NCBI GenBank assembly: GCA_051117555.1
Contig: JBNPEG010000062.1
Coordinates: 1-56,164 of the forward strand
Reading direction: 5' to 3'
Source: Elainellaceae cyanobacterium
GTDB taxonomy: Bacteria > Cyanobacteriota > Cyanobacteriia > CAZCXK01
DNA length: 56,164 nucleotides
A model generated the notes under the pieces. The model searched no databases. It worked only from the letters and a program-made list of their open reading frames with translations, and was not told where the DNA came from. The position numbers and the translations under genes were made by a program. This document shows, in pieces, positions 941-1,511 of the stretch (its first letter is position 1; every line of letters begins with the position of its first letter).

Positions 941-991
941 CTACGGTTGTTTTCTTTTACACCTTGGGTTATCCTCTGTGCTTAAGCGCTC
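941..991 (+). promoter_or_regulatory. 51-bp direct repeat, copy 2; promoter of the structured RNA/leader
   Basis: TTGTTT(947-952)-N17-TATCCT(970-975) directly upstream of the structured element. Confidence 0.65.
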
Positions 992-1146
992 AAACGAGCG
1001 GCGCTCCCTAGAAGTGGTGACGCACGACTAGGAAGCTAATCCCCCACTGTTAGCACACAGTCGGAGACTACAGACCATGTTAATGCTCCTGTAGCCATCC
1101 TGCTTTGTCATGACAAAAAGTCGGGGTGGCTTTTTGTTTGAGCGCT
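985..1146 (+). ncRNA. Putative structured RNA / leader with symE-SymR-like architecture
   Basis: Ends pair (AGCGCTCAAAC 985-995 / GTTTGAGCGCT 1136-1146). Internal hairpins at 1003-1036, 1046-1061 and 1068-1094; terminator-like stem 1093-1131 followed by a T-run. Confidence 0.55.
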
Positions 1147-1148
1147 CC

Positions 1149-1248
1149 CATAGCTAAAGGCAGAAGGCAAAAGGCAAAAGGCAGAAAAAGCTGCTAATGG
1201 GTTGTTTCGGCCAATTAGGTTGTCCTAATGCATCTATCCCTTGCTATA
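1149..1248. repeat. ~100-bp (C/T)ATAGC...GCTATA-bounded element containing AGGCA(A/G)A heptamer repeats
   Basis: Termini match the other TATAGC/GCTATA elements in the window; AGGCAGA-AGGCAAA-AGGCAAA-AGGCAGA run. Confidence 0.5.
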
Positions 1249-1274
1249 TCGTTTACATAACAAGGAGCACATTC

Positions 1275-1511
1275 ATGATTTATCCTCCAAATCCGCCCGG
1301 TGGGGCGGACAGTTCGTCACGTCCCGATGATGAGCGTCATACCTTGCGGATTATTGCCGTCGGGTCGCTTACTGTTGTCAACCATCACATCATGCAGATG
1401 TTTCAACTGGGCTATGCCGAACCGGGCGAATGGTCAAAACCATTGCCTACCGTGAATCCGAATGAAGTGATGCGGATTCTTACCAAACGCGTCATGGGGA
1501 TTGGTAACTAA
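1275..1511 (+). CDS. Small conserved cyanobacterial hypothetical protein (78 aa)
   Basis: SD AAGGAG at 1262-1267. The motif GSxxxVxxxIxxxxxLGYAExGEWSxPLP...EVMRIL is recalled from a widespread cyanobacterial family. Confidence 0.8.
   Translation: MIYPPNPPGGADSSSRPDDERHTLRIIAVGSLTVVNHHIMQMFQLGYAEPGEWSKPLPTVNPNEVMRILTKRVMGIGN

Follow-up and report, generated by a model that had tools for sequence, protein, structure and literature searches.

A repeated unit of promoter, leader RNA and small-protein gene

The stretch of DNA analysed here (hereafter the window) comprises 56,164 nt of contig JBNPEG010000062.1 from the genome assembly of an Elainellaceae cyanobacterium (GCA_051117555.1). Positions 941–1511 of the window represent one copy of a dispersed, self-contained module of ≈500 bp. 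It consists of a conserved promoter, a leader RNA of 165–175 nt with five helices (P1–P5), a Shine-Dalgarno (SD) sequence and the gene for a small cytosolic protein (Table 1). The leader is a real, widespread and previously undescribed RNA family, which is present in multiple copies and precedes small-protein genes.

Table 1. Features of the module in the window (TSS, transcription start site; ORF, open reading frame).
Feature	Position	Strand	Basis
TACGGTTGT box, overlapping the -35 element TTGTTT (947–952)	942–952	+	TACG(G/C)TTG(T/C) retained at the -35 position in most of 123 copies
-10 hexamer TATCCT of the sense promoter; predicted TSS ≈982	970–975	+	TAnnnT at the equivalent place in family copies
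Leader RNA, helices P1–P5, family element	982–1150	+	Model R1, 156.8 bits; fold z = -5.3; covariation
P1, 5' strand (partner 1136–1146)	985–995	+	Perfect 11-bp pairing; covaries across genomes
P2 hairpin; apical loop GTGACG (1017–1022) is the first hypervariable loop	1001–1036	+	Many compensatory changes
Linker GCTAATC (GCUAAUC) between P2 and P3	1035–1041	+	Identical to the linker of the E. coli symE leader
P3 hairpin; apical loop TAGCAC (1051–1056) is the second hypervariable loop; 3' strand with SD-like GGAG	1041–1066	+	
P4 hairpin; 3' side GCTCCT (1085–1090) complementary to the SD region AGGAGC(A)	1067–1095	+	Fold; covarying pairs; ACUCC/GCUCC conserved
-10-like hexamer TAACAT of the putative antisense promoter, in the P4 apical loop	1077–1082	-	-10-like hexamer here in 123/123 copies
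P5 hairpin, GCCATCC (1094–1100)/GGGGTGGC (1123–1130), followed by the U-run that forms the P1 3' strand	1094–1130	+	
P1, 3' strand (1136–1146), running into the tail CUCC (1145–1148), second anti-SD candidate	1136–1148	+	
Predicted SymR-like antisense RNA, ≈80–90 nt, two hairpins complementary to P3 and P2	985–1070	-	Both ends predicted
AAGGCA-rich insert of ≈105 nt between leader and SD	1150–1260	+	Missing from most copies; within G000 common to C219 only
Shine-Dalgarno sequence AAGGAG	1262–1267	+	AGGAG conserved 7–10 nt 5' of ATG in copies
ORF of the 78-aa small protein	1275–1511	+	≈18 paralogues in the genome

Several of these parts had been pointed out in an earlier note on this DNA, and all of those could be read directly at the coordinates given there. 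The sense promoter has TTGTTT and TATCCT separated by a 17-nt spacer as described, and the proposed closing pair is a perfect 11-bp match of AGCGCTCAAAC (AGCGCUCAAAC) at 985–995 with GTTTGAGCGCT (GUUUGAGCGCU) at 1136–1146. The layouts given for the two central hairpins are also correct, with GCGCTCCCTAG..GTG-GTGACG-CAC..CTAGGAAGC for P2 (GTG at 1014–1016 and CAC at 1023–1025) and CCCCCACTGT-TAGCAC-ACAGTCGGAG for P3. The P5 stem is directly followed by TTTTTGTTTG. Positions 982–1150 fold with a minimum free energy of -68.4 kcal/mol compared to -46.2 ± 4.2 kcal/mol for shuffled sequences (z = -5.3), and none of the 200 shuffles was as good.

The earlier note also proposed that the promoter may be linked to the SOS response through LexA, which controls symE in E. 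coli. The cyanobacterial LexA consensus is RGTACNNNDGTWCB, and the sequence ACTACGGTTGTTTT at 940–953 does resemble it with two mismatches. The regulatory link is not supported in the family, as the right half-site varies between copies and none of the 17 exact boxes found genome-wide is located at a family promoter. The lexA gene of the same genome carries an exact upstream box (GGTACACCTGTTCT). The conserved block TACG(G/C)TTG(T/C) fits a -35 element with an upstream extension.

A second family promoter together with the first ≈17 nt of the RNA is found at positions 210–294, which are 79% identical to 914–998 over 85 nt. Identity to the same stretch reaches 92% at 237–287, and unrelated sequence follows until the start of a 21-nt tandem array. 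Either a promoter standing alone or what is left of a degraded unit could account for this copy. The insert between the leader and the SD is also present in copy L116 of another genome, G002, and pieces of it occur elsewhere in the genome of the window (C121, C254, C36, and C202). Because of this insert, the window copy has its anti-SD tail at a large distance from the SD.

A widespread family of leader RNAs

A genome search and alignment with flanks gave 17 full copies of the leader in the genome of the window, referred to as G000 (letter-number codes such as C219 and L116 denote copies or loci). The 17 copies share the same order of elements, i.e., the TACGGTTGT box with the -35 element, a TAnnnT -10 element, the RNA, ≈20–30 nt, AGGAG, ATG, and a paralogue of the 78-aa protein. 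Two truncated gene fragments (C23 and C118) were also found. The copies are homologous from the promoter through to the stop codon, which corresponds to about -265 to +238 as counted from the ATG. The genes flanking 13 of the loci (26 ORFs) are unrelated to each other and include an integrase, SAM synthetase, DAHP synthase, GUN4, riboflavin genes, a caspase-STAND protein and an IS200 transposase. The module is therefore self-contained and dispersed.

A covariance model, R1, was built from the 17 copies. It has matches in all four genomes of the family or order, with 17 in G000 and 23, 6–7, and 5 in three sister genomes. A class-wide survey, which used strict filters and scored at most 18 candidates per genome, found R1 matches in 32 of the 151 sampled cyanobacterial genomes and in 26 of the 81 sampled genera. 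Some genomes have as many as 23 copies. Carriers named from protein-based loci are Elainellaceae, Nodosilinea, Leptolyngbya, Crinalium, Scytolyngbya, Oculatellaceae, Thainema, Egbenema, and others. For family-wide counts, 123 copies were collected in total.

The sense strand of the leader does not belong to a family in Rfam 15, since positions 941–1274 had no match at E ≤ 10 and eight other copies had none at E ≤ 1. Full-text searches of the literature gave no description of the RNA, although a related structure may be listed by a screen of the flanks of 931 orthologous gene groups (PMC12873609).

All five helices are conserved by covariation

The structure was evaluated on an alignment of 39 diverse sequences (A2), which are related to each other and were aligned to R1 and hence fitted to the model. 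Standard base pairs were found in 90.7% of the cells compared to 76.7% after shuffling, 29 of the 35 pairs were altered on both sides, and the observed values were not reached in any of 500 shuffles. Slid controls paired at only 33–48%. Compensatory changes were present in every helix, i.e., P1, the lower and upper parts of P2, P3, P4, and P5. The closing helix P1 is a good example, with GCGCUCAAAC/GUUUGAGCGC in G000 and CCCAAAAA/UUUUUGGG elsewhere. RNAalifold alone recovers P2, P3, and P5.

Multicopy sequences dispersed among unrelated genes could also be a mobile DNA element, such as a miniature inverted-repeat transposable element (MITE) whose terminal inverted repeats mimic the closing stem of an RNA. 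Many copies are indeed located near contig ends, and other repeat elements flank several of them. This interpretation is nevertheless very improbable and was rejected, because the repeated unit begins with the promoter, ends at the stop codon and is not bounded by P1, and because P1 covaries and contains 10% G-U pairs, both of which are constraints at the RNA level. Furthermore, the ORF is under purifying selection, and no target duplication or pair of empty and filled sites was found between G000 and G002, where G000 is fragmented and the flanks are repeat-rich.

The pairing of the RNA 5' end with the U-run after P5 led the earlier note to suggest a termination switch. In such an attenuator, P5 and the U-run would terminate transcription, and the state of the 5' end or binding of an antisense RNA would decide on read-through. 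The GC-rich P5 stem is followed by a U-rich stretch as expected. Of the 86 parsed copies, 75 have TTT and 39 have TTTT in the first 14 nt after the stem. The antisense strand of one copy also gave a weak match to the Rfam family ctRNA_pGA1 (19.9 bits, E = 0.07), which recalls the attenuation systems of plasmid countertranscripts. Yet P1 pairs with the U-run itself and only becomes available after the decision to terminate has been made. In many copies the U-run is poor (e.g., UUCUCGUUUG), and it often starts 2–5 nt beyond the stem. Moreover, the P5 loop has ≈20 nt, and a generic terminator scan did not call the stem. A termination switch in the leader is accordingly doubtful, and we regard attenuation as a rather unlikely function of the RNA.

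Two hypervariable loops

The apical loops of P2 and P3 deviate strongly from the otherwise high conservation of the leader. Among 14 RNAs from three genomes that are ≈95% alike, the mean pairwise difference was 0.51 for the P2 loop and 0.47 for the P3 loop, compared to 0.072 for the promoter and 0.054 for the remaining RNA. The five closest copies differ by 0.54 in the loops and by 0.013 elsewhere. Each copy has its own combination of P2 and P3 loops, both for the 17 copies in G000 (17/17) and for the 19 parsed copies in G002 (19/19). Some loop types recur in distant genomes. Among 118 copies (120 rows, two of which were reverse-strand matches of one copy), CUACCAA was seen six times and CGGGAA, CGCCAA, and CGGCAA four times each.

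Several explanations for the loops were considered and discarded. Co-variation between loop and protein was rejected, as C203, C187, and C240 have identical proteins and unrelated P2 loops. Pairing of the P2 loop with another part of its own RNA was likewise rejected, since the other variable parts are identical in copies with differing P2 loops. An anticodon-like reading of the 7-nt loops, judged by eye, was dropped because loops of 6 nt do not fit it. Finally, no enrichment of same-contig targets was seen for the P2 loop with flanks when one mismatch was allowed. Both loops lie under the predicted antisense RNA described below. The same pattern is seen in plasmid countertranscripts and in multicopy type I systems, where loop-loop contacts determine specificity.

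A candidate antisense RNA opposite P2 and P3

The minus-strand -10 hexamer TAACAT, which the earlier note placed at 1082–1077, is present in the P4 region, and a -10-like hexamer is conserved there throughout the family. The variants are TAAAAT (68 copies), TAAAAC (15), TAAACT (12), TACCAT (7), TACAAT (7), CATAAT (4), and others (10), with TACACT, TAAGCT, TATAAT, and TATGAT among the rarer ones. T1, A2, and T6 are kept while the middle is variable. An upstream TGn is found in 60 of the 123 copies, including copies with the imperfect hexamers TAAAAC and CATAAT. If any TANNNT within the 60-nt P4 segment is counted, 122 of 123 copies have one on the minus strand, while the sense strand has one in 40 of 123.

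The base-pair composition of the leader also points to a function of the opposite strand. In the 71 anchor-parsed copies, G-U pairs make up just 1.5% of the predicted pairs in P2 (12/784) and 1.9% in P3 (11/572), compared to 10.4% in P1 (65/628), 10.1% in P5 (77/766), and 5.8% in P4 (26/449). The per-pair covariation table of A2 repeats this pattern. G-U pairs fold on one strand only, and their scarcity in P2 and P3 is therefore expected if the complement of P2–P3 must also fold. The minus strand of the window from 1072 to 978 folds into two adjacent hairpins (z = -4.8), as does SymR of E. coli.

The Rfam model of SymR (RF01809) gave below-threshold matches to the antisense strand of six copies, all in one register, with scores of 38.9, 33.4, 31.1, 30.1, 25.8, and 20.8 bits. 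The best of these (38.9 bits) had an E-value of 3e-6 on 241 nt. When the whole G000 genome was searched, the single match at E ≤ 1 was the minus strand of the family copy C65 (30.1 bits, E = 0.0024). G093 and G002 gave six matches at E ≤ 1, five of which fall on the minus strand of an R1 copy and share this register. Based on these sequence features the leader most likely works together with a SymR-like cis-antisense RNA.

The small protein and other cargo

At least 95 of the 123 leader copies precede a member of the 78-aa protein family, usually located 20–31 nt 3' of the RNA. A second family (…FISYR.L..W…) stands behind another 10 copies and a third, weakly helix-turn-helix (HTH)-like family behind 3, while 13 copies have an unclear downstream ORF and 2 are cut by contig ends. 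Among the first-round loci from other genomes, the 78-aa family was behind the RNA in 25 of 32. As the leader also precedes other ORF families it behaves as a portable control module. At locus L263 of another cyanobacterium (G050:C25:642700-644010) the second and third families form a two-gene operon behind the leader RNA. Alternative cargo was also seen at L160–L174, L084, and L083, and the proteins are 115 aa (FISYR-type) and 108–115 aa (weakly HTH-like) in length. Pfam searches with these two families gave weak HTH hints only.

The 78-aa family has the core LRvIAvGS..V..H..Q.yQLGYA.P.EWS.PlPTvNPnEVM.ILTkR. A search at E ≤ 0.001 returned 441 cluster representatives (clusters at 50% identity), and the conserved domain is always C-terminal. 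The divergence of the ORF by codon position is 0.18/0.18/0.34, that is approximately two times higher in the third position than in the first and second, and this pattern indicates that the ORF is under purifying selection. An AlphaFold2 (AF2) model of the protein has a pLDDT of 84 and a β-α-β-β core at residues 21–74. That the protein is not SymE, as the earlier note had stated, agrees with the lack of any Pfam match at E ≤ 1, and nothing was found in NCBIfam or PADLOC. PF08845, the SymE family, had no match in the whole G000 genome. No convincing fold match was obtained (best E = 0.44 with Foldseek against PDB and best Z = 3.8 for VIA-align wide), and the matches in the ESM Atlas were only cyanobacterial clusters named 'hypothetical protein'.

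In one long family member, P0163 (580 aa), the C-terminal family domain is preceded by a TIR domain (PF13676, E = 1e-30) and by a stretch that resembles WD40. This could possibly represent a link to conflict systems, or a fusion created by gene calling. No further domain was seen in the other long members. Distant members of the protein family are encoded on plasmids of Nostocales, L267 on plasmid D of Trichormus variabilis ATCC 29413 and L268 on a plasmid of Tolypothrix PCC 7601, where they adjoin parG or a gene for an integrase. R1 has no match upstream of either ORF, and the upstream stretch of L267 contained no leader motifs when read. The distribution of the protein family therefore exceeds that of the RNA.

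Possible mode of action

The SD region is complementary to two CUCC strands, one on the 3' side of P4 and one in the tail after P1 (GCGCUCCUU). In the window GCUCCU (1085–1090) stands opposite AGGAGC (1263–1268), and in the C152 group CAGGAGUGU stands opposite ACACUCCUG with 9/9 matches. The P4 strand was the main partner of the SD in 17 of 69 full-length partition-function folds. When the 5' half of the leader was removed, which mimics pairing with an antisense RNA, the tail sequestered the SD almost completely in 28 of the 69 folds.

Taken together, we estimate a probability of roughly 60% that the module works like a type I toxin-antitoxin (TA) or plasmid countertranscript system, where the antisense transcript, the direction of regulation and any toxicity of the protein are putative. 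In this model P1 closes the 5' end of the leader onto the region just 5' of the ribosome-binding site. An antisense RNA of ≈80–90 nt with two hairpins would be transcribed from a second promoter, located on the minus strand within the P4 loop. The apical loops of P2 and P3 would serve as the sites of first contact (kissing), and as they differ among paralogues each antisense RNA would act on its own mRNA only. P1 and P4 would open once the antisense RNA has paired with the 5' half of the leader. The CUCC strands thereby freed, on the 3' side of P4 and in the tail after P1, could then pair with the SD and block translation. The long duplex of sense and antisense RNA may favor decay as a second effect.

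Several observations weigh against this model. The antisense promoter has no detectable -35 element, and the hexamer corresponds to a conserved sense motif, ANNNUA, in the P4 loop, which could instead serve the sense RNA. The G-U counts come from 71 of the 123 copies, those that were anchor-parsed, and these copies share ancestry, while the alignment A2 had been fitted to R1. SymR-model scores were all below the gathering score of 61 bits, the window copy gave no match at E ≤ 10, and three of the five genomes searched (G063, G111, and G050) gave none. Unlike SymR, the predicted antisense RNA overlaps neither the true SD nor the start codon. Its putative start (≈1070) lies ≈195 nt 5' of the SD in the window and ≈95–100 nt in typical copies, and in the window copy the 105-nt insert parts the leader from the SD. 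The refolding step rests on thermodynamic predictions that differ between subfamilies. Finally, the small protein is soluble and matches neither a toxin family nor a known fold.

The RNA could alternatively be a purely cis-acting leader, either riboswitch-like or protein-binding and maybe autoregulated by the small protein. P1 would then set the access to the SD, and no antisense RNA would be needed. Such a role would fit the compact five-helix junction, which has nucleotides that are invariant across genera (GCUAACCCCC, UAGCCACCC, and GGGGUGGCU), as well as the two CUCC elements complementary to the SD. It would also fit that the RNA is better conserved than the ORF (0.054 compared to 0.18/0.18/0.34 by codon position), and that the leader is also found in front of two further ORF families, as expected of a regulatory module with general use. 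A cis-acting leader does not, however, explain why G-U pairs are avoided in P2 and P3 only, why TANNNT is so frequent on the minus strand, or why the antisense strand matches the SymR model. It also leaves the wholly different loops of the identical-protein copies C203, C187, and C240 unexplained. We therefore find a purely cis-acting leader unlikely, and favor the antisense-controlled module.

Neighboring repeats

A tandem array of ≈14–16 units of 21 nt (TAAAGAGTCTCTGAACCTCTT) occupies positions 410–760. Arrays with a period of 21 are the commonest tandem repeats in G000 (73 arrays), and 6.5% of the genome is located within 3 kb of one. This is also the case for 10 of 19 family loci, where each array has a different unit. 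An inverted repeat, AGATCCCCGGCT ... AGCCGGGGATCT, is found directly 3' of the ORF at 1523–1585. The motif GAAGCCGGGGATCTG also occurs just 5' of the promoters of other copies (C152, C240, C219, and C28 as well as L103–L105 of G002). Positions 3–122 contain an open-ended ORF with a weak match of its final residues to the C-terminus of IS66-family transposases (NCBIfam NF033517, E = 6e-4, far below the cut-off), and the contig thus probably begins inside an insertion sequence.

Comparison with known systems

The E. coli symE/SymR pair is reportedly a type I TA system (Kawano, Aravind and Storz, 2007). In the E. coli K-12 record SymR lies opposite the symE leader and starts 6 nt inside the coding sequence. 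The symE leader reads AGCGCG, a hairpin with the top GUG-CGCCAA-CAC, GCUAAUC, a hairpin that holds the SD, and AUG. The earlier note had thus described this layout accurately. P2 and the linker can be aligned between the symE leader and its cyanobacterial counterparts, and the match of the symE leader to R1 is weak (6.6 bits) and in register. The proposed symE/SymR-like architecture is supported by the layout and by the six below-threshold matches to the SymR model, while formal membership of the SymR family is not, as all scores are under 61 bits and the window copy is unmatched.

The two systems have several features in common. Both have a cis-antisense RNA of ≈77–90 nt (predicted for the cyanobacteria) with two adjacent hairpins opposite the 5' leader, and the leaders share the order AGCG, a GUG..CAC-topped hairpin, GCUAAUC, and a hairpin with GGAG. 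The antisense RNA starts just 3' of the second hairpin, again as predicted here, and its hairpins are joined by a UUAGC linker, for which the folds of the window antisense strand and of E. coli SymR agree. The cargo is a small cytosolic protein in both cases. In the cyanobacteria this cargo is not SymE (PF08845, AbrB-like fold), and its model is instead β-α-β-β. The cyanobacterial leader has three extra helices, P1, P4, and P5, and the antisense RNA would therefore not cover the true SD or AUG. It also lacks a LexA box, and in place of a single locus there are 17–23 paralogues per genome with variable loops.

Tentatively, and with less than even odds, the SymR/symE cassette might be an ancient, portable control module of Proteobacteria and Cyanobacteria. 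The filamentous cyanobacteria would in this case have gained three helices and new cargo (a 60–160-aa α/β family and at least two other small ORF families) and amplified the module to dozens of copies per genome, with crosstalk barred by two hypervariable kissing loops and the protein acting as a cytosolic toxin. SymR-type antisense control would then extend beyond enterobacteria to another phylum and to non-SymE cargo. The 17–19 near-identical RNAs per genome with their unique pairs of 6–7-nt loops would represent a natural library of orthogonal antisense regulators and a natural experiment in how crosstalk between antisense pairs is avoided, in a structured RNA not previously described from about one fifth of the sampled cyanobacterial genomes, with up to 23 copies in each. 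The widespread small-protein family (441 clusters) would be singled out as a candidate toxin or regulator.

Several near-identical sense/antisense pairs per genome are also known for Ibs/Sib in E. coli and AapA/IsoA in Helicobacter, where short variable segments are the likely discriminators. These systems encode short hydrophobic peptide toxins, unlike the 78-aa soluble α/β protein and five-helix leader seen here. Specificity set by loop kissing would resemble the countertranscript RNAs (ctRNAs) of plasmids, such as CopA/CopT (R1), RNAI/RNAII (ColE1), and the pT181/pGA1 ctRNAs, in which changes in the loops create pairs that do not cross-react. In contrast to the plasmid countertranscripts, the cyanobacterial family is chromosomal, dispersed and without a replication gene, and the comparison concerns the mode of action rather than membership among the ctRNAs. 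Within the cyanobacteria, msoT1/msoA1 of Microcystis aeruginosa has been presented as the first candidate type I TA system of this phylum (PMC12390103). The screen behind it covered membrane toxins only and deliberately excluded cytosolic types like symE/symR. If the SymR/symE cassette is indeed an ancient module with new cargo, as considered above, cyanobacteria would have in it their first large family of the type I TA kind, with a new sort of cytosolic toxin.

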